DNA of 64,000 nt from an uncultured Chloroflexia bacterium (GTDB lineage: Bacteria; Chloroflexota; Limnocylindria; Limnocylindrales; CSP1-4), in NCBI GenBank assembly GCA_963828165.1, contig CAWHDR010000001.1, positions 1,440,001 through 1,504,000 on the forward strand. Direction: 5' to 3'. Each line of letters opens with the position of its first letter. Within the stretch, counting starts at the first letter, position 1. The position numbers and the translations under genes are program-made. The notes beneath the pieces were generated by a model that saw nothing but the letters and a program-made list of their open reading frames with translations, was not told the origin of the DNA and made no database searches. This document shows, one piece after another, positions 1,992 to 39,171 of this stretch.

Positions 1992-2066
1992 TTGACACCC
2001 CGAGTCGAGCGGTCCTATCCTCCGCTCGCCGGGCCGACATCTCGGTACCTAGATTTACCCAGATTT
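1992..2066 (+). promoter_or_regulatory. Sigma70-type promoter plus downstream AGATTT direct repeat (putative operator)
   Basis: TTGACA 1992-1997, 18-nt spacer, TATCCT 2016-2021; AGATTT at 2051 and 2061. Confidence 0.6.
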
Positions 2067-2146
2067 CTCATGCCGACCGGCCGCCCAGTCGTCCTCCCCC
2101 ACGGCCGAGCCGTTCGTCGGCGCCACTCCGTCGCCCCGAGGTCAGC

Positions 2147-2830
2147 GTGCCCGACGTCACCGCAACCGCCACCCACGACGATCGCTGGTTATCGCTCGGC
2201 CCGGCCAGTCGGCTCCTCGGCATCGACCCCGACACCCTTCGCCGCTGGGCCGACGAAGGACGGGTCGAGGCCTGGACAACGCCCGGCGGCCACCGGCGAT
2301 TCGACCGGCGTGCCCTGGAACGGATGGCGACGGACCGTCGGCGCGGCGTCGGCCGGCCACTGGCCAGCATGGGCGCCTCGCCGGAGCGGCTCAACCGGGT
2401 CTATCGGCGGCACTACGCCGCTGATGCGAGCGCGGGCCTGCAGGTGTCCTCACCACGCGACGTTGCGGATCGGGAGGCGTATCGCCAGGACGGGCGGCGC
2501 CTGATCGCTGCGCTCATCGATTTCCTCGACAGCGATGCCAACGCTGCCCCGACCCGAGAGCTCCTTGAAGACGAGGCGCGCGCGATCGTCGACGACCAGG
2601 CCATTCGGATGGCCGCGGCCGGAAGCAGCCTGACCGAGGCGGTCTCGAGCTTCGTGGCAGGGCGCCAGCCGTTCCTGGCCGAGCTTGCCGGGCTCGGCCG
2701 GAGTCGATCGCTGGATCCGACCCGCCTGGCGGCGCTCTACGGCGACGCGTCCGCGATCCTCGATCGCCTGCTGCTGCGCTTCATCGCCACCCACCAGCGA
2801 CCCGGCGCGACCGGGCCGACATCGGGCTGA
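2147..2830 (+). CDS. BldC/excisionase-type (MerR-like) HTH regulator with helical C-terminal domain, paralog 1
   Basis: WLSLGPASRLLGIDPDTLRRWADEGRVEAWTTPGGHRRF motif; GTG 2147 after GAGG. Confidence 0.85.
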   Translation: MPDVTATATHDDRWLSLGPASRLLGIDPDTLRRWADEGRVEAWTTPGGHRRFDRRALERMATDRRRGVGRPLASMGASPERLNRVYRRHYAADASAGLQVSSPRDVADREAYRQDGRRLIAALIDFLDSDANAAPTRELLEDEARAIVDDQAIRMAAAGSSLTEAVSSFVAGRQPFLAELAGLGRSRSLDPTRLAALYGDASAILDRLLLRFIATHQRPGATGPTSG

Positions 2831-2833
2831 CCA

Positions 2834-3940
2834 GTGGACGCCAGCATCGTCCTCCCCGCGATCACGTCCGTGCTCGCCCTCGTCTTCAGCGTCGGGCTGT
2901 TCGACCAGTGGCGCGTACGTCGTGGCAGCTTCCAGCTCATCTGGGGCTTCGGGATGCTGTTCTACGGCATCGCGGCGGGCGCGGAGGCGCTCGCGGGATT
3001 CGGCGGCTGGAACGAGGGCCTGTACCGCACGTGGTACCTGACCGGCGCCGTCTGGACGGCGGGTTGGCTCGGTCTCGGGACGGCATTCCTGCTCGGCCGG
3101 ACGCGGTTCGGCTACAGCTTCGCATTGTGCCTGCTCCTGGCAGGCATCTTCACGCTGCTGACACAGCGCCGGTACGACTACCCGGGCGCCGGCTCGGCGC
3201 CGATCCTCTATCTCATCGCCGCGATCATCCTCGCCATCGCCGTCGCGGTCGAGACCTACTTCCAGAACGAGCGCTGGCCGGTCCTCGCGGCGGGAGCCGT
3301 GGTCGGTGCGACCGTCCTGTCGGCCGTGTTGATGTTGACGGTCGCGATCGCGCCGCCCGGGTATGCGCTCGACCCTCGGACCGCGATGCCCATCGGGGAC
3401 TTGTTTCCTGGCACGCTGCGCCTGCTGACGCCCTTCCTGAACATCACCGGCGCGCTTGCCCTGGTCCTGGGGGCGATCTTCAGTACGTACGTGTTCATGC
3501 CCAAGAAGCGGGTGCTGCCCTACTCGCTCGATCCCAACCAGCCTGGCGATGAGTTCCTCTTCAACCTGCTCATCGCCCCCGTGGCGATCCTCGTGAACTT
3601 CGTCGCCTCCCTGCCCGGCGCCGTTCGGGCGCTGGTGACGGGTCGCATCCACAGTCGCGTCCCGGCGACGATCCTCATCGCCATCGGCGGGTTCATCCCG
3701 GCGATCACCGATTCGCTCAACAGGTTCGGCTCGACCGAGCTGTTCCAGCTCGGCAAGTTCCTCGGCGTGCTCTTCCTGTTCGCCGGGTTCCTCGTCTCGA
3801 TCGAGGTGTTTCGCGAGATCCGGGTCCCGTTCACCGGGATCCAGCTTGGCGGGACGCGCCGGGAACCTCGCGGTGTGACGCCGTCGGATGCGGTGGATGC
3901 GCCCGGCGGTCGTCACGCGGGCACGGCGCACCCGCGCTGA
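2834..3940 (+). CDS. Polytopic membrane protein of unknown function
   Basis: About 9-10 hydrophobic segments; starts 3 nt after the HTH gene stop. Confidence 0.85.
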   Translation: MDASIVLPAITSVLALVFSVGLFDQWRVRRGSFQLIWGFGMLFYGIAAGAEALAGFGGWNEGLYRTWYLTGAVWTAGWLGLGTAFLLGRTRFGYSFALCLLLAGIFTLLTQRRYDYPGAGSAPILYLIAAIILAIAVAVETYFQNERWPVLAAGAVVGATVLSAVLMLTVAIAPPGYALDPRTAMPIGDLFPGTLRLLTPFLNITGALALVLGAIFSTYVFMPKKRVLPYSLDPNQPGDEFLFNLLIAPVAILVNFVASLPGAVRALVTGRIHSRVPATILIAIGGFIPAITDSLNRFGSTELFQLGKFLGVLFLFAGFLVSIEVFREIRVPFTGIQLGGTRREPRGVTPSDAVDAPGGRHAGTAHPR

Positions 3941-3986
3941 GGGCTCGCACGGGCGGGGGAGCGGGCTGCGGCCCTACCATGACCGG

Positions 3987-5000
3987 GTGTCCAGCCCCAC
4001 CGTAAGCCCCTCGGCGCGCGTCGCGCCGGTCGTCGACTCCACCGCGCGGCCGCCCATGGTCGGATTCGGCATCGTCATCGGTGCCGCGGCGCTCTTCGGG
4101 ACGCTCGGACCGCTGGCGCGGTTCGCCTACGACGCCGGGATGGAGCCCGCTGGGTTCGTCGCCTGGCGCGCGTTGATCGCCCTCATCGGCACGAGCGTCT
4201 ATGTCGCCTGGCGTGTCCGGCGCGGCTCGACGCGGTTGGTCCGCCTGAGCGAACTGCGAGCGCGGAGCCGGATGCTGTTGCTGCTCGCGGCGGTCATGGG
4301 CTTCACCCTCAATCTGTTCATGTTCATCGCCTTCGATCGGATCACCATCGCGCTCGCCTTGCTCGGCTTCTACACCTACCCGGCGATGGTCGCGGTCGCG
4401 AATGTCGCTTTGGGGCGGGAGGCCCTCGATCGCACGCGCGTCATCGCCTTGGGGCTGGCGGTCCTGGGCATGATCGCGGTCGTAGCGTCGCAATTGGATC
4501 CGGCGGGAGCGATCCGGCTGGACGCGATCGGCATCGGCCTCGCCCTCGGTGCGGCAGTCAGCCAGACCGTGTTCGTGGTCATCAGCCGCGACGGCTACTC
4601 CGAGGTCCCGACAGATCAGGCGATGGCGATCGTGCTGCTGGTCACGGTGCTGGGTTCCGTCGCTCTGGCGGTCTTCAGCGGGGCCCTGCCTTCGCTCGTG
4701 TATCCGGTGGAGTCTCCGGACGTGTTGCCGCTGCTGCTGTTCACGGGCATCTTCGCAGCGGCCATCCCGTCACTCGGGTTCCTGACCGGGATCCGCGCGA
4801 TCGGTGGGACGCGGGCCGGCATCCTGATGCTGTTCGAGCCGGTCGTCGGTGTCGCACTCGCGGCCTGGCTCCTCAGCGAAGACCTGGCGCCCGTCCAGCT
4901 CGTGGGCGCGGCAGCCATCCTGGCCGCGGCCCTGCTCCTCCAGCGCTCGGCGAGCGGGCCTGACACGGACCGCGTGCCGGTCGTTCCCGGCGGACCCTAG
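3987..5000 (+). CDS. EamA/DMT family transporter
   Basis: Two repeats of about 5 TM; YTYPAMV and LFEPVVGVALAAWLLSE motifs. Confidence 0.9.
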   Translation: MSSPTVSPSARVAPVVDSTARPPMVGFGIVIGAAALFGTLGPLARFAYDAGMEPAGFVAWRALIALIGTSVYVAWRVRRGSTRLVRLSELRARSRMLLLLAAVMGFTLNLFMFIAFDRITIALALLGFYTYPAMVAVANVALGREALDRTRVIALGLAVLGMIAVVASQLDPAGAIRLDAIGIGLALGAAVSQTVFVVISRDGYSEVPTDQAMAIVLLVTVLGSVALAVFSGALPSLVYPVESPDVLPLLLFTGIFAAAIPSLGFLTGIRAIGGTRAGILMLFEPVVGVALAAWLLSEDLAPVQLVGAAAILAAALLLQRSASGPDTDRVPVVPGGP

Positions 5001-5017
5001 GTCGGACGGACCAACCA

Positions 5018-5704
5018 ATGCCGCCCAGAGCCGCACCGATCCGGATCCTGCTCGTTGACGACCACGCGATGGTTCGTCGCGGGATGCGCGATTTCCTGGC
5101 GTTGCACGAGGACCTCGAGATCGTGGGCGAGGCCGCCGACGGGGCGGCCGCGATCGAGCAGGCCGCCGTGCTCCGGCCCGACGTCGTCGTCATGGACCTG
5201 CTGATGCCCGGGGTCGACGGCATCGATGCGACCGCCCGCATCAGGGCCGCGGACCCCGACATCGAGATCGTCGCGATCACGAGCTTCATCGAGGAGGGGC
5301 GGATCGTGGCGGCCCTCGAGGCCGGTGCGTCCGGGTTCCTGCTGAAGGACGCCGAGGCCGATGAGCTGGCGGCGGCGATCCGCGCCGCGGCGTCCGGCGA
5401 GGTGCATCTGGACCCGGCGGTGGCCGGGATCGTCGCACGCCGGATGCGCAGCCGGGCGGGCGGGGCCACGGGCACCGGCGTCGGCTCGGACGGGGACGCG
5501 CTGGGCGGCCTCACGGCGCGCGAGCGGGACGTGCTCAGCGCCGTCGCGCGTGGGCTATCGAACCGGGCGATCGCGAACGAGCTCGGCATCACGGAGCGGA
5601 CCGCGCGCACCCACGTGTCGAACATCCTGGCCAAGCTCGGCCTCGCGAGCCGGACGCAGGCCGCCCTGCTCGCGGTCCAGCACGGCCTGGATCGCCCCAC
5701 GTGA
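5018..5704 (+). CDS. NarL/LuxR family response regulator
   Basis: ILLVDDH...MDLLMPG receiver; LTARERDVL...GLSNRAIA HTH. Confidence 0.95.
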   Translation: MPPRAAPIRILLVDDHAMVRRGMRDFLALHEDLEIVGEAADGAAAIEQAAVLRPDVVVMDLLMPGVDGIDATARIRAADPDIEIVAITSFIEEGRIVAALEAGASGFLLKDAEADELAAAIRAAASGEVHLDPAVAGIVARRMRSRAGGATGTGVGSDGDALGGLTARERDVLSAVARGLSNRAIANELGITERTARTHVSNILAKLGLASRTQAALLAVQHGLDRPT

Positions 5705-6534
5705 GCGAAAGCGCCTACGACATCGACGGACCCGCCGACGGGCCTCCGATCGTCTTCGTCCACGGGACTCGGTTGAGCCGCACGATGTGGCGCGCCCAGA
5801 TGGACGACCTGCGAGACACCTATCGCGTGGTCGCCGTCGATCTCCCCGGGCACGGCCGGCTCGCCGACCGCCGCTTCACTGTCGCGGGGGCAGCCGACGC
5901 GGTCGCTGACGCCATCGAGACCGCGGGCGGCGGGCATGCCGTCGTCGTCGGCCTGTCGCTCGGGGGCTACGTCGCGATGGACCTGGCGGCTCGTCGTTCC
6001 GAGCTCATCCGCGGCCTCGTCCTGTCCGGGGCGACCGCCGAACCGGTCGGGGCGCTCGCCACGCCGTTTCGGGCCCTCGCCTGGGTCATGGATCGGTTCG
6101 ACGGCCCCGCGCTCGATGCATTCAATGCCTGGTTCTTCCGGACGCGGTTCTCCCCGGCGATCGCCGAGCCGGTCGTCGCCGGCGGCTTCTGGACGGCCGG
6201 CGGTGCGCAGGCCCTGCGAGCCATCGTCGGCGAGCGCTTCAAGCCGCGTCTTGCCGAGTATCCCGGATCCACCCTCATCCTCAACGGCGAATGGGACCCG
6301 CTCTTCCGGCCGGGTGCGGGCGCCTTCGCTCGCGCCGCCGCGGATGCTCGCCGGGTGCGGCTGCGGGGCGCCACCCACCTCGCAAACCTCGACCGGCCAG
6401 GGGCGTTCAGCCTCGCCGTACGTCGCTTCGTGGAGTCGCTCCCCCCGCTCGTTCGAGCCGTCGGCGAACCCGGCGTCCACCGGCGTGGAGAAGGTCCGGT
6501 GCTAGACTTGGCCGACTCACCCCGCGTCCCCTGA
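5701..6534 (+). CDS. Alpha/beta hydrolase
   Basis: FVHG, DLPGHG, GLSLGG nucleophile elbow, C-terminal His. Confidence 0.9.
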   Translation: MSESAYDIDGPADGPPIVFVHGTRLSRTMWRAQMDDLRDTYRVVAVDLPGHGRLADRRFTVAGAADAVADAIETAGGGHAVVVGLSLGGYVAMDLAARRSELIRGLVLSGATAEPVGALATPFRALAWVMDRFDGPALDAFNAWFFRTRFSPAIAEPVVAGGFWTAGGAQALRAIVGERFKPRLAEYPGSTLILNGEWDPLFRPGAGAFARAAADARRVRLRGATHLANLDRPGAFSLAVRRFVESLPPLVRAVGEPGVHRRGEGPVLDLADSPRVP

Positions 6535-6555
6535 CACCCTACCGACCGAGGTTCG

Positions 6556-7434
6556 ATGCGCGTCCGTAAAGCCGTTTTCCCTGCCGCCGGCTGGGGCACC
6601 CGCTTCCTGCCTGCGACCAAAGCGCAGCCAAAAGAGATGCTGCCGCTGGTCGATAAGCCGATCATCCAGTACGGCGTCGAAGAGGCGGTGGCCGCCGGGA
6701 TCGAGCAGATCATCATCGTGACCTCGACCCACAAGGGCGCGATCGAGGACCACTTCGACCTCAACTACGAGCTCGAGCACCTGCTCGAGGAGAAGGGCGA
6801 GATCGAGAAGCTCCGCCAGGTTCGGGCGATCACTGACCTGGCCCAGCTCGCCTATGTCCGACAGAAGGAACAGCTCGGCCTGGGGCATGCGGTGCTCATG
6901 GCCAAGGACCTGATCGGCCACGAGCCGTTCGCGGTCATCCTGCCCGACGACGTGTGCATCGGGGAGCGTCCGGTCATCGGCCAGCTCATCCACGCGTACC
7001 ACCAGACCCACGGTTCGGTGGTCGCGGTCATGGAGGTCCCGCCCGAGGAGACGAGCCGCTACGGCGTCATCGCCAGCGAGCCGACGGAGGACCCCCTCGA
7101 CCATGGGCGGTTGCACAGGGTCACGCGGCTCGTCGAGAAGCCGGCCCCCAAGGACGCGCCGTCCAACCTCGGGATCATCGGCCGCTACGTCCTGACGCCA
7201 AAGATCTTCGACAAGCTCGAGCAGACGCAGCGCGGTGCCGGTGGCGAGATCCAGCTCACCGATGCGATCCAGGCCCTCATGGAGGAGCAGCAGGTCTTCG
7301 CCTACGCGTTCGAGGGCGTCCGCTACGACGCGGGCACCACGATGGGCTGGCTGAAGGCCTCGGTCGAGCTGGCCCTCCAGCGACCCGAGCTCGGTCCGGA
7401 ATTCCGGACGTACCTGGCGGGCCTCCAGACCTAG
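6556..7434 (+). CDS. galU: UTP--glucose-1-phosphate uridylyltransferase
   Basis: KAVFPAAGWGTRFLPATKAQPKEMLP, VEKP, GEIQLTDAI. Confidence 0.97.
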   Translation: MRVRKAVFPAAGWGTRFLPATKAQPKEMLPLVDKPIIQYGVEEAVAAGIEQIIIVTSTHKGAIEDHFDLNYELEHLLEEKGEIEKLRQVRAITDLAQLAYVRQKEQLGLGHAVLMAKDLIGHEPFAVILPDDVCIGERPVIGQLIHAYHQTHGSVVAVMEVPPEETSRYGVIASEPTEDPLDHGRLHRVTRLVEKPAPKDAPSNLGIIGRYVLTPKIFDKLEQTQRGAGGEIQLTDAIQALMEEQQVFAYAFEGVRYDAGTTMGWLKASVELALQRPELGPEFRTYLAGLQT

Positions 7435-7477
7435 CCGCGCGCGCGGCGTCCATCGGGGCGTTTGCGAGACTTTTGCG

Positions 7478-7707
7478 GTGACGCCCGAGATCCTCGTGAT
7501 CGCCGCGATCCGCATCGCGGCGTCGTCGCGGCGGTCGGCCCGGCCCGGGCGGCCGGCTGGTCGCGTGCTCGGCTGGCGGCGGTGCTGCTCGTCCTGACCC
7601 TCGCGAAGGAGGCGCAGGAGTGGGCGATCCATGGCCGCCGCCTCTTCGACGGGATCAGCTCGCTCGAGTTCCTGGACCTCGTTCGCCGGGCCCTGACCGG
7701 CGGCTGA
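7478..7707 (+). pseudogene. Probable internally deleted membrane-protein gene
   Basis: GTG 7478 gives MTPEILVIAAIRIAAS; the protein-like C-terminus (LAAVLLVLTLAKEAQEWAIHG...) is in another frame. Confidence 0.35.
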
Positions 7708-7784
7708 TCGTGCCCCCGTGGGGTACGATGCGGGCCGGAGCGCGTCGCGAACGGCGGCGCGCCGAACCTTGTCGAGGGGCACGT

Positions 7785-9458
7785 TTGGCCGAGATCGGGA
7801 CCATCTTTGGCGGCCGCTACCGACTCGTGGAGCTGCTGGGCCAGGGTGGCATGGCGACCATCTTCCGCGCGCTCGACACGCAGCTTGGGCGCGAGGTCGC
7901 GGTCAAGCTGTTGCGGCCCGAGTACCTGCGCGATCCCGACTTCTCGTCGCGCTTCCGCCAGGAGGCGCAGAACGCCGCTTCACTGAGCCACCCGAACGTC
8001 GTCACCGTGTACGAATACGGCGAGGACCCCGCCGGGCCGTTCATCGTCATGGAGTACGTCGACGGCGAGGACCTGGCATCGATCCTGCGCCGGAATGGCG
8101 CCCTGCCGCCGACCCAGGCGGCACGTATCGCCGCCGGCGTCGCCCGCGCCCTCGCGGCGAGTCATGCCCGAGGGATCGTTCATCGAGATGTGAAGCCCGG
8201 CAACGTGCTGATCGCGCGGGACGGCCGGGTGAAGGTCGTCGACTTCGGGATCGCCCGGGCCATCGCCGAGGCGCAGATGACGATGCCTGGGACGACCCTG
8301 GGCTCGGTCCACTACTTCAGCCCGGAGCAGGCGCGCGGCGAGCTGGCGACCAGCGAGTCCGACATCTTCTCGCTGGGAATCGTGCTCTACGAGATGCTGA
8401 CCGGCAGCCGGCCGTGGGAGGGCGACAGCGCGGCCGGCGTGGCGCTCGCCCGACTCAGCGGGCCGATCCCCGATCCCGCACTCGTTCGTGGGTCGATCCC
8501 GCCGGATCTCGCGGCGATCACGCGCAAGGCCCTGGCCCGGCTGCCGAGCGATCGCTTCGCCTCGGCGGCTGCGATGGCCGACGCCCTCGAGTCGTCACGA
8601 AGCTCGGCGGGCGCGTCGGCGGCCGCCGGGGGAGCAGCGGCAGCGGGTGGCATCGCACGGTCGAACCCGACCGTGGTCTCGTATCCGCCTGACGCCTACG
8701 CCGGCTCCGACGACGCCCGGGCCGCAGGGGCGCGCCCCGTCGCCGACCGATCACGCGCTCCGATCGGACCAGACGAGGAGCCGCCGGGCGGCACGAGCCC
8801 CGTCGTATGGCTGGCCGGGCTCATCGCCATCGCGCTGCTTGCGGCCGTTGCCTTCCTCGTCTTCCAGCTGCTGTCCGGTCCGCCGACGAACGAAACGACC
8901 GACGTGGAAGTCCCGCAGTTCGTCGGCACACTGATCGCCGACGCGACCCGGGAGGCGGACGGTCTGGGCCTGATCCTCGAGCCGGTCAACGTGCCGTCCG
9001 ACCAGCCGGTGGGGACGATCCTCACCCAGGACCCGCCGGAGGGAACGGTGGTCGCGCCGGGCGCCACCGTCAACGTGACGGTCGCCCAGGGTCTCGAGAC
9101 GGTCCCGACGCCGAACCTGCGCAACAAGACGGAGGCCCAGGCGGTCCAGGAGATCGTGACGGCCGGCCTCGTGCCGGGGACGAAGACCGAGGCCTTCGAC
9201 GCCACCGTGCCCGAGGGCCTCGTCGCGGCGCAGAACCCGGCGCCCGGTGTCGTCGTCGCGAAGGGATCGCCGGTCGACTACACGGTCTCGCAGGGTCAGG
9301 AGCCAAGCCCGACACCAAGCCCGACGCCGACGCCGACGCCGACGCCCACGCCGACTCCCACGCCCACGCCCACACCCACGCCGACTCCCACACCCACACC
9401 GACACCGACGCCGGAGGTCAGCGAGCCGCCACCATCCTTGGAGCCGCCACCGGCGTGA
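7785..9458 (+). CDS. PASTA-domain Ser/Thr protein kinase (PknB/Stk1-like)
   Basis: GQGGMA, VAVK, HRDVKPGN, DFG motifs; TM; two PASTA repeats; Pro-Thr tail; TTG start after GAGGGG. Confidence 0.93.
   Translation: MAEIGTIFGGRYRLVELLGQGGMATIFRALDTQLGREVAVKLLRPEYLRDPDFSSRFRQEAQNAASLSHPNVVTVYEYGEDPAGPFIVMEYVDGEDLASILRRNGALPPTQAARIAAGVARALAASHARGIVHRDVKPGNVLIARDGRVKVVDFGIARAIAEAQMTMPGTTLGSVHYFSPEQARGELATSESDIFSLGIVLYEMLTGSRPWEGDSAAGVALARLSGPIPDPALVRGSIPPDLAAITRKALARLPSDRFASAAAMADALESSRSSAGASAAAGGAAAAGGIARSNPTVVSYPPDAYAGSDDARAAGARPVADRSRAPIGPDEEPPGGTSPVVWLAGLIAIALLAAVAFLVFQLLSGPPTNETTDVEVPQFVGTLIADATREADGLGLILEPVNVPSDQPVGTILTQDPPEGTVVAPGATVNVTVAQGLETVPTPNLRNKTEAQAVQEIVTAGLVPGTKTEAFDATVPEGLVAAQNPAPGVVVAKGSPVDYTVSQGQEPSPTPSPTPTPTPTPTPTPTPTPTPTPTPTPTPTPTPEVSEPPPSLEPPPA
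9303..9413 (+). repeat. Coding (CCN-ACN)n hexamer repeat encoding a Pro-Thr tail
   Basis: PSPTPSPTPTPT... with varied third codon positions. Confidence 0.85.
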
Positions 9459-9503
9459 CCCTTCGGGCTCCGTGCCCGACGGGCCCGCTGCGCCGGGACG
9501 CGT

Positions 9504-9965
9504 CTACCGGTCGGGGTCGCCCCACAGGCTCCAGCCTGGTTCGCCGGCCGGCGGCAGTGGAGGCGGGACGAACGCCGGCGAGTCGGAACTCGGTGCGGTC
9601 GCCTCCAGGTCCGGCCCCGCGGGTTCGATGCTCGCCACGGGAGGCTGCGCTGCCTGCAGACCGTGGACCTCGATGAACTCGAGCGGTGCCGGACGACCCG
9701 GTGGCGGTGCCTCGTCGTCCGTCGTCCGGGTCGACGCCACGAGCGGCGCGCCCGCGCCGCCGGCCGCTGCCTCCCAGCACGCCCGGATCTCATCGCCGGT
9801 CAGCGGCTGGCGCCGACGATCGAGGCCGCAGTAGCCGAGTGAGCCCGCCACCGACCGGCGGAAGCTGCGACAGGTGCCACAGGCGGTGGAGGACCGTCGG
9901 CAGACCCAGCACCTGGCCGTCTCGGCCTGGGGGGTCCCGCAATGCGGACAACGCCACATCGGCAT
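9504..9965 (-). CDS. Cys-rich putative zinc-finger protein
   Basis: CPHC, CWVC, CGTC plus two further Cys; TACCAT 6 nt upstream of ATG. Confidence 0.75.
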   Translation of the reverse strand: MPMWRCPHCGTPQAETARCWVCRRSSTACGTCRSFRRSVAGSLGYCGLDRRRQPLTGDEIRACWEAAAGGAGAPLVASTRTTDDEAPPPGRPAPLEFIEVHGLQAAQPPVASIEPAGPDLEATAPSSDSPAFVPPPLPPAGEPGWSLWGDPDR

Positions 9966-10024
9966 GGCTGGATGGTAGTCTGCGATCGGGAGGCCTGTCG
10001 AGCATCCTCGGGGAGGGGTGGCGC

Positions 10025-22860: not shown

Positions 22861-22882
22861 GCGGCTGACCTACACTCCGGCG

Positions 22883-31451: not shown

Positions 31452-32091
31452 GCCGGAGCACCCGCACCGTCTTGGTCGTGACGTCCTCCAAATCCTCGAT
31501 CGTCGGCACCTCGTAGCGGGCGAGCTCGTCGAGGCCGTCGACCGGCAGGTGGGCTCGGCCGGGATCGCCGGTCAGGACGTCGGCGCCGCGCGCGGCCAGT
31601 TCGCGCAGCCACGGCGCCATGCGCGCGGCGAGCTCGGGCTCGTACCAGAGGTCGCCGACGAGCACGACGTGCCAGCCGGCGTCGGTGCCGATCGGATCGG
31701 CCTCCTCGAGGTCCAGGGTCACGCCGTTGGCGCTCGCGTTCAACCGGCTGGCCTCGATGGCGAAGACCTCGAGGTCGATGGCGGTGACGCTCGCGGCTCC
31801 CGCCATGGCCGCAGCGATGGCCACGATCCCGCCGCCGCAGCCGATGTCAGCGACGCGCCGTCCACGGACCAGCTCGGGGTGGTCCAGCACATGTCGCGCG
31901 AGTGCCTGCCCACCGGCCCACGCCCACGCCCAGTACGGCGGTGGCACCGCCGGGCGCGCGTCCGTCAGTGCAGCGGCCTCCCACAGCGGCATCGAGAGGC
32001 CACCGGTCCGCATGGTGATCTCCGGCACCAACGGGGCCGGCGCTGCGATCGTATTGGCGAGGATGAAGGCCTGGCGCTCGGCGGGGATCAC
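31441..32091 (-). CDS. Lysine/protein methyltransferase (Methyltransf_16/PrmA-like)
   Basis: PPPYWAWAWAGGQALAR, VADIGCGGG, GDLWYE, GDPGRAHLP. Confidence 0.88.
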   Translation of the reverse strand: MIPAERQAFILANTIAAPAPLVPEITMRTGGLSMPLWEAAALTDARPAVPPPYWAWAWAGGQALARHVLDHPELVRGRRVADIGCGGGIVAIAAAMAGAASVTAIDLEVFAIEASRLNASANGVTLDLEEADPIGTDAGWHVVLVGDLWYEPELAARMAPWLRELAARGADVLTGDPGRAHLPVDGLDELARYEVPTIEDLEDVTTKTVRVLRLRP

Positions 32092-32153
32092 GGGCCAAGT
32101 CTGATGGTTGCGCCCGAGGTCAGGGCGGCGCGCCTCGCGGCTACCATCGCGAC

Positions 32154-32888
32154 GTGAATGTGCGATGGACCGAGCTGTTCGACCGCCCGTCCATGGCGCT
32201 CGCCGCATCCGCGGCGACCCTGCTGCTGCCGGTCCTGTTCGTGCTCGCCATCCCGAACCCGCTCGAGCAGGCGCCCGGGATCGATTTCGCCCTCTACCGC
32301 GACGTGGCTGCACGCTGGGTCGACGGCGGACCGTTCTACGAGCCACGCCAGCTCTCCGGGCCGTACGAGGTCGCCCACGGCGACGTGCTCTACCCGCCCG
32401 TCGGGCTGTGGTTGTTCGTCCCGTTCACGGTCCTTCCGGCCGTGCTCTGGTGGGGCATCCCCGCCGCGCTGACGATCTGGGCCGTATGGCGCGTGCGTCC
32501 GCGGCCGGCAGTCTGGCCGCTCATGGCGCTCTGCCTGGCGTGGCCGACCACGCCGCTCAAGATCTGGACGGGCAACCCGGTCATCTGGTGCATGGCGGCC
32601 ATGTCGATCGCCATCGTCTACCGCTGGGCCGCGCCCTTCGTGCTCCTGAAACCCAGCCTGTTCCCGTTCGCCTTGTTCGGGTTCCGAGAGCGCTCGTGGT
32701 GGATCGGGCTGGTCGTGTTCGTGGCGCTGTGCGTGCCGTTCGGAGCGCTGTGGGCCGACTGGGTCGCCTCGGTCCTCAATTCCCGTGGCAGCGGGCCGCT
32801 CTACTCCGTGCTGGAGGCGCCGATGCTGCTCTTTCCGCTGATCGCCTGGGCGGGTGCGACCCGTGGGAGGCGCCGGTCGGACTCGTGA
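32154..32888 (+). CDS. Membrane protein, GT87/DUF2029-like glycosyltransferase
   Basis: DFALY..RWVDGGPFY, LYPPVGLWLFVPF, GN, LLKP; multiple TM. Confidence 0.65.
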   Translation: MNVRWTELFDRPSMALAASAATLLLPVLFVLAIPNPLEQAPGIDFALYRDVAARWVDGGPFYEPRQLSGPYEVAHGDVLYPPVGLWLFVPFTVLPAVLWWGIPAALTIWAVWRVRPRPAVWPLMALCLAWPTTPLKIWTGNPVIWCMAAMSIAIVYRWAAPFVLLKPSLFPFALFGFRERSWWIGLVVFVALCVPFGALWADWVASVLNSRGSGPLYSVLEAPMLLFPLIAWAGATRGRRRSDS

Positions 32889-32970
32889 TATGCCCCAAGG
32901 CGTTGCAGACGTGCGACAAGCGGCCCCAAAGGGTGGCCCAGAGAGTCAATGCCCCATACACTGCCAGCCG

Positions 32971-34191
32971 ATGACCGAGCTTGCGCGCGACCCGGCGGGT
33001 GCCGGCCGCGCCGATCCGATCCTGCGCCTCGTCGAATCGCTGGCCACACGCCGCGACTCGAGCGATACGGGTTCGGCCGACGCGGACCGGTACCGCGCGT
33101 TCCTCGAGGCCCTGGGCGTCGCGGTCTACACCACCGACGCGGACGGCCGGATCACGTTCTACAACGAGGCCGCGGCAGAACTGTGGGGACGCCGGCCCGA
33201 GCTTGGCGAGGAGTGGTGCGGCTCCTTCCGGTTGTTCTGGACTGACGGAACGCCGCTGGCCCACGGTGACTGCCCCATGGCGATCGCCCTGAAGGAAGGT
33301 CGCTCGGTCCGCGGCTTCACCGCGATCGCCGAGCGCCAGGACGGCAGCCGGGTCGATTTCCAGCCCTACCCGACCCCGCTCTACGACCAGGGCGGACGGA
33401 TGATCGGCGCCGTGAACGTCCTGGTCGATATCACCGAACGGCGCCGCATGGAGGACGACCTCCGGGCGTCGGCCGAGGCGCTCGCTGCGTCCAACAGCGT
33501 GAAGGACGACTTCGTCGGGTTGATCTCCCATGAGCTGCGGACCCCGGTGACGACGATCTACGGCAACGCCCAGCTGCTGCGAGATCGTGTCGACCGCCTG
33601 CCAGAGGAGACCCGCGACGCGATGGTCGTCGACATCGCCGAGGATTCCGAGCGCCTCCTCGAGATCATCGAGAACCTGCTGCTGCTCTCCCGGATGCAGG
33701 CGGGCACGTCCGCGGAGCTGGAGCCGCAGGTCCTGACCCACGTGATCCGGCACGAGATCGGGGCCTTCTCGCGGCGACATCCGCACCGCGACATCCGGTT
33801 CGTGGGGATCCCCGGACACCACGTCGTCGTCGAGGCGGACCGCACGCACCTCGTCCTCCTGCTGCAGAACCTCCTCACGAACGCCCACAAGTACGGTGGC
33901 CCCGACGGCGCGATCGACGTGACGCTCGAGACGGTGGACCGCGAGGCGCTCGTCCGCGTGCTCGACCGGGGCCTCGGCCTCGACGACACCGATGCCGCCC
34001 GACTGTTCTCGCCGTTCTATCGCAGCACGGAGGCGCAGCGGACGGCCAGCGGCCTGGGTCTCGGGCTACCCGTCTGCGAGCGGATCGTCACGGCGCTGGG
34101 CGGGCGCCTGTGGGCCTCTCCACGGGAGGGCGGTGGCGCCGAGTTCGGGTTCGCGCTGCCGCTGGCACCGGCGCTCGGCGAGAGCGAGTAG
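32971..34191 (+). CDS. Cytoplasmic PAS sensor histidine kinase
   Basis: PAS (VYTTDADGRITFYNEAA), SHELRTP, NAHKY, GLGLGL. Confidence 0.92.
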   Translation: MTELARDPAGAGRADPILRLVESLATRRDSSDTGSADADRYRAFLEALGVAVYTTDADGRITFYNEAAAELWGRRPELGEEWCGSFRLFWTDGTPLAHGDCPMAIALKEGRSVRGFTAIAERQDGSRVDFQPYPTPLYDQGGRMIGAVNVLVDITERRRMEDDLRASAEALAASNSVKDDFVGLISHELRTPVTTIYGNAQLLRDRVDRLPEETRDAMVVDIAEDSERLLEIIENLLLLSRMQAGTSAELEPQVLTHVIRHEIGAFSRRHPHRDIRFVGIPGHHVVVEADRTHLVLLLQNLLTNAHKYGGPDGAIDVTLETVDREALVRVLDRGLGLDDTDAARLFSPFYRSTEAQRTASGLGLGLPVCERIVTALGGRLWASPREGGGAEFGFALPLAPALGESE

Positions 34192-34205
34192 CACCGGCGG
34201 CCCGC

Positions 34206-34487
34206 ATGAAAGGCGATCGCGTCGAGGCGTTGGTCGATACCGGCGGCGGCGTGCAGACGTTCGACATCGTCGCCACCAAGGCAGGCCGGCGGATCGAGGT
34301 CAATAGCGCGCGCGGTGTCGTGGAAGTCACCGAGGTCACCAGATCCGGCAAGACCGTGCGGACCGGCCGGTTCATGGCCAACCGGCTCGTCGCCCTGATC
34401 GAACATCCGGCCGAAGGGCCGAGCAGCGCCTCGGTCGAGGTCTCCGAGCGCCGCCGGCTTCGGCCGGGCGACGGTTCGGCCGGGTGA
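34206..34487 (+). CDS. Small beta-rich hypothetical protein
   Basis: 93-aa ORF with typical codon usage directly after the kinase. Confidence 0.65.
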   Translation: MKGDRVEALVDTGGGVQTFDIVATKAGRRIEVNSARGVVEVTEVTRSGKTVRTGRFMANRLVALIEHPAEGPSSASVEVSERRRLRPGDGSAG

Positions 34488-34606
34488 ACGCGAGGCGGAC
34501 CCGGCTTGCCGCGGTCGCGCCCGAAGAACGCCCCGAGGCTGCGCTCGTCGCCGTGGAGCGCGGTGACGCCGTCTTCCAGGCCGCGGCGTGACGTATGGAG
34601 GTGGGC

Positions 34607-34966
34607 ATGGCGACGTCGCCGGAGGTCAACGCCTGGTTCGAGCGATACGACAACCCGATGAAACCCGTGGTCCTGCGAATCCGGGAGATCGTGCTCGAGG
34701 CGGATCCGCGGATCACTGAAACCGTGAAATGGCAGGCGCCGACATTCACCTACAAGGGCAACCTGGCCAGCTTTTACCCCAAGAGCCGGCAACACGCCAG
34801 CCTGTTGTTCCACCTGGGTGCGAAGATCCCGGGCGAGCATCCGCGCCTCGAAGGGACTGGCGACACGTCCCGGGTGATGAAGATCCGGAGCCTGGACGAG
34901 GTCGAGGCCGCTCGGACGGAGCTGGCTGCGATCGTCAAGGCGTGGTGCGATTGGCGCGAAGGCTGA
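34607..34966 (+). CDS. DUF1801 (YdhG-like) protein
   Basis: IREIVLEADPRITETVKWQAPTFTY; GGAGG RBS. Confidence 0.85.
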   Translation: MATSPEVNAWFERYDNPMKPVVLRIREIVLEADPRITETVKWQAPTFTYKGNLASFYPKSRQHASLLFHLGAKIPGEHPRLEGTGDTSRVMKIRSLDEVEAARTELAAIVKAWCDWREG

Positions 34967-34989
34967 CGACCGTATGGGTCGGCGGCAGC

Positions 34990-35174
34990 GGGTCGATCCG
35001 CCTGCTTCGACTGGGACGACGGCAGCCGCGTGAACGTCACCTTCGGCGCAACCGGCGATGCGATGAGCCCGGTCGCCGTCGAGCATGACACCGGCCCGAC
35101 GCCCGAGCCGCGGCCACCGCAGGGCCTACTGGCGCGACCGCCTGACCGCGCTCAAGACCTTGCTCGAGGGGTGA
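34990..35174 (+). pseudogene. Frameshifted 3' remnant of an SRPBCC-like gene
   Basis: FDWDDGSRVNVTF...VAVEH, then AYWRDRLTALKTLLEG* in another frame; no start. Confidence 0.45.
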
Positions 35175-35178
35175 GCCA

Positions 35179-36255
35179 TCAAGGGCGGGGCCATGCCTGA
35201 TCCCAGCCGTCCGGCCCCAGCTCCCACACGTCGAGCTGGTGGGAACCGCCGGGTTGCGCGATCCCACCGACCAGGACGAGGACTCCCCGTTTGACGTCGA
35301 ACGCCAGGGCGTGCCCGTTCCGGGGCGTGGGGGCCGTCCCCGTGGACACCTTCGACCAGGCGTCCGTCCATCGCCAGGTGTCTGCCGCCATGGGCGTGTC
35401 GAGCCCGGTGCCCCCACCGAACATGACGATGCCGCCGAGTCGGTCGTCCCAGACGCCCGGGGAGTTGACACGCGGACCGGGGCCCTCGGGGTCCGCAACC
35501 TCGAGCCACGCCCCGTCACTCCAGCGCCACGTGTCGGCCAGGAAGTCGCCGTCGTTGCCATCGACCCAGTGACCGCCCTGCAGGAGGATGGCGTCGGTCG
35601 AACGGTCCTCCGTCATCAGGCTGACGAAGCGCGGGCGCGGGCCGACCTCGGCGATCCGCTCCCACTCGCCGCCCTCCCACGCCCACGTGTCCGCTTGCTG
35701 AACAGCGCCGGTCGAGCCGCCGAACAGCACCATCCGGTGTGAGGCGGCGTCAAAAGCGAGGCCGGCGCCCTCGCGCGGACCGGGCCCCGGGGCCGTGGTC
35801 ACCGACCAATCGCGGCCGTCCCATTCGAGGGTCTCGTCGAAGGCTTCGCCACCCCCGTCCACGCCACCGTGGACCACGACGACCTCTCGCTCTGGGTCGC
35901 GCCCGAGCGCGGCGAAGCTGCGCGCCGGGGGTCCCGCGGCGTCAAGGAGCTCCCATCCCTCGCCGCTCCAGCGCCACAGCTCCGTCGGCCGATCGGGACC
36001 GTTCTCGGTCGCGCCGTTGACAAGGACGACCCCCTCGAGCCGAGGATCGTAGAAGAGGCCGAACGTCTGGCCAAGCACCAGGCCGGCGACGCGGCCCGAG
36101 GGCGCGGGACTGCCGGATCCTGATGCCTCCGGCGCTGGTATTCCGTCCGAAGGAGGCGGCTCGCCCCGTAGCGGTGCCGCGGTGTCGGCAGGAGGGCCAC
36201 CGCAGGCGACGATGACGATGAGCGTTGCCACCACGAACAGACAGCGACCGGGCAT
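35179..36255 (-). CDS. Kelch-repeat (beta-propeller) lipoprotein
   Basis: Lipobox IVAC; repeated LFGG...DTWxW motifs; AGGAG RBS. Confidence 0.85.
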   Translation of the reverse strand: MPGRCLFVVATLIVIVACGGPPADTAAPLRGEPPPSDGIPAPEASGSGSPAPSGRVAGLVLGQTFGLFYDPRLEGVVLVNGATENGPDRPTELWRWSGEGWELLDAAGPPARSFAALGRDPEREVVVVHGGVDGGGEAFDETLEWDGRDWSVTTAPGPGPREGAGLAFDAASHRMVLFGGSTGAVQQADTWAWEGGEWERIAEVGPRPRFVSLMTEDRSTDAILLQGGHWVDGNDGDFLADTWRWSDGAWLEVADPEGPGPRVNSPGVWDDRLGGIVMFGGGTGLDTPMAADTWRWTDAWSKVSTGTAPTPRNGHALAFDVKRGVLVLVGGIAQPGGSHQLDVWELGPDGWDQAWPRP

Positions 36256-36415
36256 GCGGGGACTCCTGCGAGGTCAGTCGTGGCGGTAGTACACCGGCCG
36301 GGGCTTGATGGTTCCGGTCGGACGAAACACCGCAGTCGAGCGAGCGTGTCAGTTTTCTATCGCGCAACGACGGCGTCCCCGCCATGTGCGAAAGACGCCG
36401 TGGCCGTCACCGATG

Positions 36416-36575
36416 TCAGGGACAGTAGTACGGGGCCAGGTCCACGCCGTCGGCAGGATGCGGCCCGTTAACGCTGAGCACGTTGCCGGACTCGTCGAAC
36501 ACGATGCGACCAGCGTCGCGGATCCGAACGCCATTTGGCCCGATGAGATGGATGGGCTTGCCAACCACCGTGCGC
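36416..36575 (-). pseudogene. 3' remnant of a secreted-type protein gene
   Basis: GKPIHLIGPNGVRIRDAGRIVFDESGNVLSVNGPHP...YYCP*; no plausible 5' part. Confidence 0.35.
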
Positions 36576-36579
36576 GTCC

Positions 36580-36802
36580 CGTCCGCAGGCTGACGCGCCT
36601 TACGGAGCGCGAGCGCGAAGCCCTCGGGCAGATCGCCGAGGGACGCTCCAACCGGCCGATCGCCGAGCGACTCGGGATCACGACGAAGACGCTCGAGGGG
36701 ATGAGCGGCACGATCTTTGGCAAGCTCGGGCTCGAAGACGACCCGGACGTCAACCGTCGCGTGCTGGCCGTGCTGCTCTATCTCGACGGAGCCGGTGAGT
36801 AG
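36580..36802 (+). pseudogene. LuxR HTH fragment (truncated response regulator)
   Basis: LTEREREALGQIAEGRSN...IFGKLGL...NRRVLAVLLYL without a receiver domain. Confidence 0.65.
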
Positions 36803-36816
36803 CGGACCGACCTTCG

Positions 36817-38154
36817 TCAGGCGGCCGGCGCCTCGACCTTGGCCTGCCCGACGGGCTCGTTCGCCGCGGCGGCGTACCGGCTCGAAAGCGTTCGGTACGG
36901 GCCGGAACGCAGCGCAAGGAGCGTCACGAGCAGCCCGATGGTGCCGGCGATGATGAAGATCAGCGCCATGCCACGATCGGGCCCGGTGCCGAACCACGAC
37001 CCGATGCTGTCGGCAAGCGCGCCGCCGGTCATGGACGGGATCACCCAGAACTGCGCGATGGGACCGATGAGGAACGCGGTGATCGGTGAGGCTGCGGTCT
37101 CGAGGGTCTGCGCGAAACCGAAGACCCGGCCCTGCTCCCCGAAGGGCACGACCTTCTGGATGACCGTCTGCTCCGATGCCTCCGCGACCGGGGCGAGGAA
37201 CAGGTAGACGAAGAACCCGATCGCGAGCGGCAGGATCTCGGAGCGGATGGGAAAGATGATCGTCACGCTCCACATCACGACGTTCGCGAGCAACAGCGTC
37301 CTGACCGGGTTGACACCCAGCCCGCGTCGGGCGACGAAGATCCCGCCGACGATGAACCCGAGGCTGGTGAAGGCGATCAGGAAGCCCCATGCCTCGACCG
37401 ACATCAGGGTCAGTCCGTAGGGGTCCATCAGCGACATGAACACGCCGCCCAGGAAATTGTTGAACATCGAGAAGAGCAGCAGCCCGAGCAGCCCGGGGAC
37501 GAGCCCGACCGCCCGGATCGCGCCCGCGATGTCGATCATTCGAGGCGAATCGGCGCTCGGCGTGGGCGCCTCCTCCTCGATGCGGATCGTCATGAGATGC
37601 GCCGCAGCGAGGGCCGTGACGACCACGGCGATGAGCACGCACGCGCCCATCCCGAGCTGACCGACGGCCAGACCGCTGAACACCGAGGTCAGGGCGAATG
37701 CGACCCCATTCGCCGTCCCCACCAGCCCGTTCGCACGATCGCGGCCCTCCTCCGGGACCAGGAGCGTGACCGTGGTCGAGAGGGCGACGGATCGCAGGTT
37801 GCCGGCGATGGCACCGCCCAGCACGAGTGCGATGAACGCCCAGAAGGCGGGGTGGCTGAGATCCCGCAGCGCCGAAGCCGGCGCGACGACGAAGACCACG
37901 CCGGCGAGCGCGAAGGCCGAGAGCGAGAGCCCGCTCGAGAGCAGCATCGACGTCCGTCGAAGGTGCCGATCGACGAAGGTCCCGAAGAACATCGCCGAGA
38001 GGGCGACCAGCAGCATGTACCCGCCGCCGATGATCGCCGTGGCCAGGACGGAGCGGGTCTCGATGTAGACCCAGAACGTCAGCGCGAACCACAGGAAGTT
38101 ATTCGTGACGTTGGCCACGAGCGTGTTTGCGACGAGCAGATGGAACGTACGCAT
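36817..38154 (-). CDS. MFS transporter (DHA3-like)
   Basis: About 12 TM; GTFVDRHLRR motif A-like; QGRVFG. Confidence 0.9.
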   Translation of the reverse strand: MRTFHLLVANTLVANVTNNFLWFALTFWVYIETRSVLATAIIGGGYMLLVALSAMFFGTFVDRHLRRTSMLLSSGLSLSAFALAGVVFVVAPASALRDLSHPAFWAFIALVLGGAIAGNLRSVALSTTVTLLVPEEGRDRANGLVGTANGVAFALTSVFSGLAVGQLGMGACVLIAVVVTALAAAHLMTIRIEEEAPTPSADSPRMIDIAGAIRAVGLVPGLLGLLLFSMFNNFLGGVFMSLMDPYGLTLMSVEAWGFLIAFTSLGFIVGGIFVARRGLGVNPVRTLLLANVVMWSVTIIFPIRSEILPLAIGFFVYLFLAPVAEASEQTVIQKVVPFGEQGRVFGFAQTLETAASPITAFLIGPIAQFWVIPSMTGGALADSIGSWFGTGPDRGMALIFIIAGTIGLLVTLLALRSGPYRTLSSRYAAAANEPVGQAKVEAPAA

Positions 38155-38244
38155 CAGGTCACCAGCATGACGGCGCTACGGTCGGGGTCTGGGTCGTCCA
38201 CCGTCGCGCACCGTCGAGCAGGGCCCTGGAGCCCACGGGAACGG

Positions 38245-38289
38245 TGGAGCCGACACGCGGATTCTATCCGAGGCCTCGCTGTTTGCGAA
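38245..38289 (-). repeat. Degenerate copy of the 3' part of tRNA-Thr(CGT) (att-like site)
   Basis: 37/45 ungapped identity to 54193-54237 (manual count), same orientation. Confidence 0.85.
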
Positions 38290-38424
38290 GTCGGCATCCC
38301 AAAAGGGGGCGGAGCGGACCCCGACGGGCCGGCTCCCAGGTCGAGCGGCCTGGTTTCCGACTTCTAGCGTGGCGGTCGACGTTGGGGGAACGACGGACTC
38401 GCGCAGGAATCCTCGCGTCCGAAA

Positions 38425-38472
38425 TGGTAAAGTGAGCGAGTCAGCTACGTTCTGGTAGATTTGAGTAGGTTT
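38425..38472 (+). promoter_or_regulatory. Extended -10 promoter plus 10-bp-periodic direct repeats (putative operator)
   Basis: TGgTAAAGT 38425-38433; TACGTTC 38446, TAGATTT 38456, TAGGTTT 38466. Confidence 0.6.
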
Positions 38473-39171
38473 GTGACTCGATCAGCGTCCCGCGACCCCG
38501 ACTGGGTGGGCCTCTCGGAGGCAAGCCGCGTGCTCGGCGTCTCACCTGCCACGCTCCGCCGCTGGAGCGATGCCGGCCGCCTTCGGGTGTTCACGACACC
38601 TGGCGGCCACCGGCGGTTCTCCCGATCTGCCCTCGAACGCCTCCTCCCGGCGGACAGATCTCGACGCCCATCGATCGGTGGCGCCGGCCTGTCGCCGAGC
38701 CGGATCGCACGGAGCTACCGGCGGGCGAGCCGCGAGGCGGCGCCGGAGCTCCCCTGGGTCCTGACCCTGACCGACGAGCAGCGCCTCCTGTTCCGGGAGC
38801 GGGGCCACGTCCTCGCCGCGAGCCTCCTCCAGTACCTTGACGCGCCGCAGCCCGAAGCGGCGACGCATCATCTGAAAGAGGCATCCGCCTCGGCCGCCGA
38901 GTACGGCACCGTTGCGGCGGCACTCGGCCTGTCTCTCAGCCAGACGGTCGAGGGCTTCCTCCGCTTCCGCGCGCCGTTCCATCACGAGCTGGCGGTGGCG
39001 GCTCGCCGGCGCGGGTTCGACACGGCCGAGACGACGGACCTGCTCGAGACCGCGGAGCGGGCGATGGATCGGCTGCTGGTGGCCACGATGACGGGCCACA
39101 CTCGAGCCGCTGGCACGGGCGGTCGACCCCGCCCGATAGCGGAGCGGACCGGGAAGGATCGCGAGGCGTGA
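38473..39171 (+). CDS. BldC/excisionase-type HTH regulator with helical C-terminal domain, paralog 2; first gene of the heme operon
   Basis: WVGLSEASRVLGVSPATLRRWSDAGRLRVFTTPGGHRRF; stop overlaps the hemA start. Confidence 0.85.
   Translation: MTRSASRDPDWVGLSEASRVLGVSPATLRRWSDAGRLRVFTTPGGHRRFSRSALERLLPADRSRRPSIGGAGLSPSRIARSYRRASREAAPELPWVLTLTDEQRLLFRERGHVLAASLLQYLDAPQPEAATHHLKEASASAAEYGTVAAALGLSLSQTVEGFLRFRAPFHHELAVAARRRGFDTAETTDLLETAERAMDRLLVATMTGHTRAAGTGGRPRPIAERTGKDREA

Follow-up and report, generated by a model that had tools for sequence, protein, structure and literature searches.

Two paralogous regulatory genes, here named regA and regB, lie in a 64,000-nucleotide stretch of the genome of an uncultured Chloroflexia bacterium (assembly GCA_963828165.1, contig CAWHDR010000001.1, positions 1,440,001 to 1,504,000), referred to below as the window. 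Each encodes a BldC-like winged helix-turn-helix (wHTH) followed by a domain of predicted globin-like fold, each is preceded by periodic direct repeats, and regB heads a heme operon. We put at about 0.65 the probability that RegA and RegB are local, autoregulated one-component repressors, in which a BldC-type wHTH is joined to a non-heme, RsbR-like globin dimer domain and which act on AGRTTY repeats. The HTHs would bind head-to-tail, in BldC-like manner, on two to four direct AGRTTY repeats, spaced 9-10 bp apart and located just 3' of the -10 box of their own operon. Since the repeats are found just downstream of the -10 box, the bound protein would most likely block transcription. RegB would control regB-hemA-hemCDB-hemL-hemE-hemH, and RegA would control regA together with TM368, a gene for a membrane protein. 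The globin-like domain, thought to form a symmetric dimer via its last two helices and to be tethered to the HTH by a flexible linker, would bind or sense a small ligand presumed to switch DNA binding.

RegA and RegB are 41% identical over 222 columns (BLASTP of 2147-2830 against 38461-39171, E 2e-39). Full-length paralogy of 2147-2830 and 38473-39171 had been claimed in an earlier note on the window and is borne out by this alignment. No other full-length copies occur in the genome of 3.31 Mb, in which two additional matches are confined to the HTH. The two genes, the gene behind regA and the predicted control elements are the following.

2147..2830 (+): RegA, 227 amino acids (aa), BldC-like wHTH and globin-like sensor domain, TM368-linked clade
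38473..39171 (+): RegB, 232 aa, wHTH at about 11-58, flexible linker, globin-like sensor and dimerisation domain at about 65-214
2834..3940 (+): TM368, multi-pass membrane protein, 4 nt 3' of RegA, presumed regulated gene
1992..2021 (+): RegA promoter, TTGACA 1992-1997, 18-nt spacer, TATCCT 2016-2021
2047..2066 (+): predicted RegA operator, ACCT-AGATTT and ACCC-AGATTT, two direct repeats with a period of 10
38425..38433 (+): putative extended -10 of RegB (TGgTAAAGT), proposed from conservation
38442..38471 (+): predicted RegB operator, TACGTT 38446, TAGATT 38456 and TAGGTT 38466, period 10

Translation of RegA probably begins at a GTG with GAGG ahead of it. For RegB, the start is taken to be GTG 38473 and not TTG 38461, because close orthologs differ by 1-nt indels in the interval from the last repeat to the GTG and because the resulting 232 aa is the length of most database homologs. 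One near-identical database protein is named from a 'Candidatus Limnocylindrales' metagenome-assembled genome (MAG). TM368 matched no Pfam or NCBIfam family. It has about ten helices, its Atlas neighbours are Chloroflexota hypothetical proteins only, and its AlphaFold2 (AF2) model, with a predicted local distance difference test (pLDDT) of 80.7, retrieved only generic, uninformative seven-transmembrane bundles in a fold search. Each of the 16 RegA-type copies examined has a TM368 ortholog directly 3' of it, and two relatives (L042, L044) have a tandem duplication of TM368.

The RegA promoter agrees with the consensus at 10 of 12 positions, against an average of 0.1 sites in shuffled sequences, and the same TTGACR / TAnnnT arrangement is present upstream of RegA-type orthologs. 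The AGATTT units of RegA (2051-2056 and 2061-2066) follow the -10 box by about 30 nt, precede the RegA start by 81 nt and are conserved upstream of RegA-type orthologs. For RegB, a consensus scan of its strand revealed no canonical -35/-10 pair. Upstream regions of 11 RegB-type genes (protein identity 56-100%) were aligned; only the -10 block and three repeats align, up to the start codon. The first conserved block is TGgTAnAGT, further 5' of which the regions are unalignable, and it probably represents an extended -10 of the RegB/heme operon. The third RegB repeat ends 1 nt before the start codon. Over both types, the repeats are separated from the start codon by 1 to about 81 nt and from the -10 by 12-30 nt. 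Repeats at 2051, 2061, 38446, 38456 and 38466, as well as their periodic direct arrangement between promoter and start, had been noticed before; both the positions and the arrangement are confirmed here, the latter also by its conservation in orthologs.

To estimate specificity of the repeats, both strands of all loci in two sets were scanned for RGRTWY-N3-4-RGRTWY, a match being called upstream if located within 250 nt of the regulator and on its strand. Set A consists of 69 loci (367,670 bp, 71 regulator copies), two loci from unpublished genomes and two HTH-only loci having been omitted. Set B consists of 80 named MAG loci (394,815 bp), 7 of which share sequence with set A. All 36 matches in set A are upstream of regulators (31 of 71 copies) and none elsewhere. 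Set B contains 44 matches upstream of 40 of its 80 copies and 4 elsewhere, so that pooled counts (762 kb) are 80 matches just upstream of regulators versus 4 at other places. An earlier count, which took in L013 and L032 from unpublished genomes G087 and G067, gave 38 matches at 33 of 73 copies. These two loci are also included in listings of ortholog neighbourhoods and upstream regions; they are excluded from the tree, residue conservation, RegB upstream alignment, position weight matrix (PWM), co-variation and final pattern count.

The four exceptions in set B are of different kinds. At one contig end, the pattern stands ahead of a truncated regulator copy; a second match, 400 bp upstream of a regulator, is located on the other strand; and a third looks like chance. 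The fourth is directly 5' of hemA in locus L130. There (L130:1471-3321), a regulator is followed by a separate hemD-like gene (so labelled from its translated open reading frame, ORF), three AGATTT units at 2186, 2204 and 2214, and hemA from 2218; because of this order, the repeats stand ahead of hemA rather than of the regulator.

In the bacterium's own genome, AGRTTY-N4-AGRTTY has exactly 2 matches on both strands, which are the RegA and RegB sites, and other spacings of the AGRTTY pair give 0-2 matches, the chance level. This count proves little by itself, since the pattern was derived from these two sites. A PWM was therefore of more interest, as it was built from 124 repeat units of other genomes only. 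Genome-wide, it ranks the RegB site first (32.0 bits; repeats 1-2 alone 19.9 bits) and the RegA site second (27.8 bits). In third place is a site within coding sequence (23.1 bits), and below it no non-overlapping site exceeds 15.4 bits. On this ranking, each regulator seems limited to its own operon as target. The 23.1-bit site (G000:C1:1366587, minus strand), in an ORF read as HD-GYP-like by eye, was considered as an additional regulon member and rejected as chance because of its position in coding sequence; the same applies to an AGATTC tandem near it. The operator suggested by the earlier note thus holds up in two respects, as the two sites stand out by PWM and the repeats are conserved in orthologs. 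The repeats represent a strong phylogenetic footprint, and the idea that they are operators is strongly supported by comparative evidence.

We examined how this family is distributed. The family is small. Each of the 80 named loci that its profile retrieved belongs to an uncultured MAG; the label is Chloroflexota or Limnocylindria for most and a different one for a few. When 1.84 billion representatives were searched with the C-terminal domain (C-domain) only, 225 proteins passed E <= 1e-3, of which 103 also passed E <= 1e-10; full-length matches mostly have the same layout of 205-275 aa. In a survey of the class, homologs (E <= 1e-10) were detected in 95 of 121 genomes, the bacterium's own genome included. 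By family, with the own genome left out, they are present in 24/35 genomes of f1, 0/5 of f2, 36/39 of f3, 33/40 of f4 and 1/1 of f5. Within f1, genera g4 (0/7) and g9 (0/3) gave no homolog. These class tallies take in five unpublished genomes (G087, G067, G106, G096 and G112).

A quick maximum-likelihood tree (IQ-TREE) of 71 copies displays three groups: TM368-linked, M20-peptidase-linked and hemA. The TM368-linked clade unites all 16 rows of this type with support of 99. The hemA clade contains 28 rows, in 23 of which hemA is directly downstream; in set B, hemA is downstream of 52 of 80 copies. Location of one paralog, RegB, at the head of a heme operon was proposed earlier and is confirmed, the link being kept in relatives. 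Among homologs, linkage to heme genes applies to the hemA clade only; in the other two clades, the neighbour is a membrane-protein gene or an M20-peptidase gene.

In family f3 (L025-L033, L068-L072), an M20 peptidase (Pfam/NCBIfam M20 amidohydrolase) is encoded directly 3' of the regulator in 12 rows. In f4 (L054-L067), it is the regulator that is directly 3' of a different M20 peptidase of about 520 aa; an M20 match was obtained for 2 of 4 upstream ORFs tested, the other 2 being probably mis-framed. Genomes of both families contain a single regulator homolog, tied to an M20 peptidase/amidohydrolase, and this association may be the more ancient setting of the family. Four genomes assigned to f4 (G099, G117, G024 and G060) encode hemA-linked regulators (L008-L010, L012) that are 75-81% identical to that of the window and nested in f1 rows; operon transfer, mis-binning or a taxonomy issue are possible causes. 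In loci L017 and L018 (genomes G038 and G005), two divergent regulator paralogs share one spacer of about 420 bp, each with repeat-like elements, and hemA follows one paralog and not the other.

The DNA-binding domain was compared with BldC of Streptomyces (6ama, 6amk). As described in PMC5859096, BldC contacts DNA through R30, K26, W31, H46, R47 and R48, makes head-to-tail contacts through G44 and a core of L43, W31 and F21, and occupies 9-bp direct repeats of the unit AATTxxxx(C). All three clades keep R29, R30, W31, G44, G45, H46, R47 and R48 without exception, so that the BldC contact residues R30, W31, G44, H46, R47 and R48 are 100% conserved. Lys26 is not kept, being Ala or Ser in the hemA clade and Asp in the other clades, and Leu43 is replaced by Pro. 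The repeat unit in this family is xxxxAGRTTY with a period of 10, or 9 in one subclade.

Position 26, which corresponds to the base-contacting Lys26 of BldC, varies together with the spacer between repeats. Proteins with Asp26 are associated with C-rich spacers (ACCC, GCCT) in 14 of 16 cases and never with G-rich ones. For proteins with Ala, Ser, Gly, Gln or Thr at this position, 36 of 46 spacers are G-rich (GAGT, GGGT) and 3 C-rich; in a Ser26 subclade, 3-nt spacers account for the period of 9. Recognition of the repeats by these proteins would be expected to produce such co-variation. As clade-level changes are few, it counts as supporting evidence and not as a statistical result. The notion that both paralogs share an operator stands for the AGRTTY core, common to the clades, and fails for the spacer, which is clade-specific. 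The spacer pattern points to insulation between the paralogs. They would provide a natural case of paralogs that apparently diverged jointly in recognition helix and operator.

Structure of the C-domain was predicted by AF2 from an alignment of 52 sequences. Mean pLDDT of the model is 90.4, and linker residues 58-75 are non-helical and of lower confidence. Foldseek found nothing in the PDB at E <= 0.001. In an exhaustive VIA search, residues 65-216 matched globin-like sensor domains, with the following values.

Stressosome RsbR-like protein, 3zta: 11.9, 3.6 A, 137
MabR/Rv2242 N-domain, 9fb1: 11.5, 3.5 A, 139
Photocobilin, 8j2w: 10.2, 3.5 A, 118
DosC globin, 4zva: 10.2, 3.0 A, 130
RsbR, 2bnl: 9.1, 3.3 A, 125

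The model thus assigns to the C-domain, with high confidence, a globin-like sensor fold of the non-heme RsbR/pXO2-61/MabR kind. A globin- or RsbR-N-like domain had been guessed from the sequence, and structure prediction and fold search agree with this guess. In profile searches, Pfam RsbRD_N (PF14361) gave weak matches in 10 of 52 members (best E 5e-4), below the gathering threshold, with no match for RegB (E <= 5) or RegA (E <= 0.01). No phycobilisome or globin family matched among the 52 members, nor did B12-binding domains PF02310/PF02607 at E <= 5 in the families listed. Comparison of the C-domain with the Atlas yielded scores of at most 0.84, which are leads only.

Homodimer prediction scored 0.74, the best of 3 controls reaching 0.00; the mark applied is reached by 20 of 30 proteins solved as same-chain pairs and by 1 of 23 solved as single chains. 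Contact agreement between runs was at least 70% and pLDDT of the partner at least 73. The predicted interface is composed of helices 155-178 and 181-210, the last two of the domain. The N-MabR crystal dimer is formed through the same last two helices (PMC11617747), and because of that the result may partly reflect likeness to solved globin-sensor dimers. Invariant C-domain residues of the family are R108, G111, F162, R166 and D199, with L202 invariant in two of three clades. R166, D199, L202 and residue 163, beside F162, belong to the predicted dimer interface.

Several points weigh against autoregulated repression as outlined above. NCBIfam model NF033787 (HTH_BldC) scores 41.7 bits with RegA and 44.5 with RegB, its cutoff being 77, and proteins of 227 and 232 aa with a folded C-domain of 150 residues depart from the small size of the BldC family; the family is BldC-like in its DNA-binding part and, judged by its sequence, outside the NCBI-defined BldC subfamily. 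The strict two-repeat pattern is missing upstream of 40 of 71 copies in set A and 40 of 80 in set B, and many f4 copies directly behind the M20 peptidase gene have no repeats in view. Spacer co-variation comprises few clade-level events, not many independent ones. The -10 of RegB is suggested by conservation, with no promoter from the consensus scan on that strand, and transcription starts are likewise putative. A search for RNA runs covering 38200-40400 returned none, and the 16 runs listed cover small shares of the stretch. BldC both activates and represses, and position of the repeats is for this reason no proof of repression. Finally, since F162, R166, D199 and L202 are at or beside the predicted dimer interface, these residues mark no ligand pocket, and the ligand is assumed rather than indicated.

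Another explanation, rather unlikely in our estimate, is that RegB is a feedback regulator sensing heme or porphyrin, whose globin-like domain binds a tetrapyrrole, for instance by a terminal His, and thereby governs repression of the heme operon. In favour, RegB heads this operon and the link is conserved, one relative (L130) has repeats directly ahead of hemA, and end-product feedback would be the simplest logic at this location. In addition, the wing motif TPGGHRRF recurs in 8jbs, which was deposited as a 'putative cobalamin binding protein'. A terminal His was described in the earlier note as conserved and as a possible heme or porphyrin ligand. Counted from GTG 38473, this is His209, which is present in 65% of the 23 hemA-linked members, 81% of one of the other clades and 74% of the remaining one, and is replaced by Trp, Tyr or Phe otherwise; conservation is thus only 65-81% per clade. 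H133 and H170 occur in 48% and 43% of the hemA-linked members. An invariant His or Cys, sought in the C-domain of these 23 members as heme axial ligand, was absent, and the axial ligand was rejected; the invariant proximal His of heme-binding sensor globins accordingly has no counterpart. Residues 206-207 and 210, which flank H209, are in the predicted dimer interface. Further, family-invariant residues are the same in TM368- and M20-linked clades, the sole Pfam signal is the non-heme RsbRD_N, and the best fold matches are non-heme sensors. Heme sensing through the terminal His finds no support in these data.

A His-free variant of this idea can also be formulated. According to PMC8717448, RsbR-type globins hold a fatty acid by Arg at the proximal-His position, photoglobins and phycocyanins hold bilins through Asp, and the photoglobin pocket is lined by two residues, a conserved Asp of helix 3 and a hydrophobic one of helix 4, in association with B12 domains. 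RegB might regulate the heme pathway by feedback, its RsbR-like globin domain binding heme, coproporphyrin or bilin non-covalently and steering head-to-tail polymerisation of the BldC-type HTH on the repeats before hemA; clades with re-tuned pocket and spacer would be insulated circuits. We regard this proposal as doubtful. If the true ligand were a tetrapyrrole, it would be a fourth ligand type for non-heme globins.

Improbable, too, is that the repeat-binding proteins act as activators or dual regulators which bend DNA beside a weak promoter devoid of -35. A 2019 mBio paper reportedly describes BldC as acting both ways, and the RegB promoter has no recognisable -35. Strong distortion of DNA by BldC is described in PMC5859096. 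Against activation speaks position of the repeats 3' of the -10 in both RegA and RegB types, which is typical of repression, and the near-consensus RegA promoter (10/12) should need no activator.

That the repeats are an RNA leader element, or promoter/-10-like boxes read by RNA polymerase or another factor, is very unlikely: TAGATT does fit the TAnnnT form of a -10, RegB-type repeats occupy the entire presumed 5' leader and abut the start codon, and the last repeat is GGGAGG, ribosome-binding-site-like, in some relatives, but the RegA and RegB leaders have no stable structure (z -0.73 and +0.85 versus shuffles), an Rfam scan of the window found no family at them, distance to the start varies while that to the -10 stays at 12-30 nt, the pattern is found almost only beside this gene family, and the spacer co-varies with the recognition helix. 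An RNA-level role for the repeats is unlikely as well.

Autoregulated repression by a BldC-type protein with a non-heme sensor domain remains our preferred explanation, and its components can be related to several known systems. Like BldC (PMC5859096), RegA and RegB have a MerR-like wHTH with the same six contact residues, AT-rich direct repeats with a unit of 9-10 bp, and a variable number of repeats (2-4 here; 2 and 4 in the BldC whiI and smeA sites). Unlike these proteins of about 230 residues, BldC is described in the same source as a pleiotropic developmental regulator of 68 residues with no sensor or dimerisation domain. RegA and RegB, by contrast, would target only their own operon according to the genome-wide scan; they also differ in the replacement of Leu43 by Pro and of Lys26 by Ala, Ser or Asp, and in the NCBIfam BldC score under the cutoff.

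With RsbR (2bnl), the Moorella RsbR-like protein (3zta), pXO2-61 (3pmc) and MabR/Rv2242 (9fb1; PMC11617747), they share a globin-like fold lacking the proximal His. As in MabR, described in PMC11617747, dimerisation is predicted to proceed by the last two helices. These domains are sensor modules of signalling proteins, that of MabR in a transcription factor. Partner domains differ, being STAS in RsbR, none in pXO2-61, and GGDEF-like plus PucR HTH in MabR, in which both the DNA-binding domain and domain order are distinct from RegA and RegB. Neither a fusion to BldC-type wHTH nor a link to heme genes was found among the non-heme globin sensors, and sequence similarity to them is marginal (RsbRD_N in 10/52, none for RegB).

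An N-terminal MerR-type HTH with a C-terminal sensor is also characteristic of CarH/LitR and of photocobilins/photoglobins (5c8d, 8j2w, 8jbs; PMC10979010, PMC8717448), among them 8jbs with its TPGGHRRF wing. Photocobilins have a biliverdin-binding globin-like domain, photoglobins an Asp/Leu/Cys pocket signature, and architectures combining HTH_17 with photoglobin are listed in PMC8717448. CarH, LitR and photocobilins are light sensors with B12 domains, unlike RegA and RegB, in which no B12 domain was matched. MerR, CueR, SoxR and TipAL likewise combine an N-terminal MerR-type wHTH with a C-terminal effector domain. In contrast to classical MerR proteins, RegA and RegB have no coiled-coil dimerisation helix after the wHTH, and their sites are direct repeats 3' of the -10, with an 18-bp promoter spacer, instead of a palindrome in a 19-20-bp spacer.

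Known regulators of the heme pathway include Irr, HrrSA/ChrSA, Rex (upstream of hemACD in Streptomyces), HemX and HbrL. Rex is located directly upstream of hemA in actinobacteria, as is RegB, and the two would have control of early heme-synthesis genes in common. To our knowledge, none of these regulators uses a BldC-type HTH or globin-like sensor, and their families and operator types are unrelated. In the literature, we found no BldC-type HTH-globin fusion and no such regulator at hemA, within a comparison outside which lay PMC8717448 Fig. 4 and PMC5859096 Supplementary Fig. 11, both of which could list one. The supposition that this is not a described regulator of heme biosynthesis agrees with the absence of any description of the family in the literature covered. 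RegB is best seen as a candidate for a new kind of heme-pathway regulator, with the heme operon as conserved target of one clade, and would be the first candidate heme-biosynthesis regulator for an abundant, uncultured Chloroflexota class. In this family, the way in which BldC binds DNA would be combined with a dimeric sensor to give a simple circuit, local and autoregulated. This circuit should be easy to test, as operators are short and highly specific, apparently only two in this genome, and targets are defined.

Behind regB, the operon continues with hemA-hemCDB-hemL-hemE-hemH, the RegB stop and hemA start overlapping by 4 nt (39168-39171).

39168..40328 (+): hemA, glutamyl-tRNA reductase (Pfam GlutR_N, Shikimate_DH, GlutR_dimer)
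40325..43054 (+): hemC-hemD-hemB fusion, 909 aa (Pfam Porphobil_deam, HEM4 and ALAD on one ORF)
43740..45038 (+): hemL-like class-III aminotransferase, from family search
44951..46081 (+): hemE, uroporphyrinogen decarboxylase; listed ORF start overlaps hemL
46078..47034 (+): ferrochelatase family gene (hemH/cpfC), with which the recognisable cluster ends

The fusion gene (40325-43054, +) encodes HemC (porphobilinogen deaminase), HemD (uroporphyrinogen-III synthase) and HemB (5-aminolevulinate dehydratase) in this order, and thus three steps of the heme pathway, with HemB out of pathway order. A gap of about 690 nt (43055-43739) separates it from hemL; two ORFs of this region (43011-43601 and 43586-44251) gave no Pfam/NCBIfam family where tested. 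The true start of hemE is probably further 3' than listed. Kelch-repeat beta-propeller proteins are encoded on either side of the heme cluster (35179-36255, minus strand, and 48087-49238, plus strand). Elsewhere in the window, two tRNA genes (696-769, plus strand, and 54196-54267, minus strand) are the sole Rfam matches, and a 612-aa ORF (7620-9458, plus strand) resembles, by eye, a Ser/Thr protein kinase with a long Pro-Thr tail (PTPTPT...).

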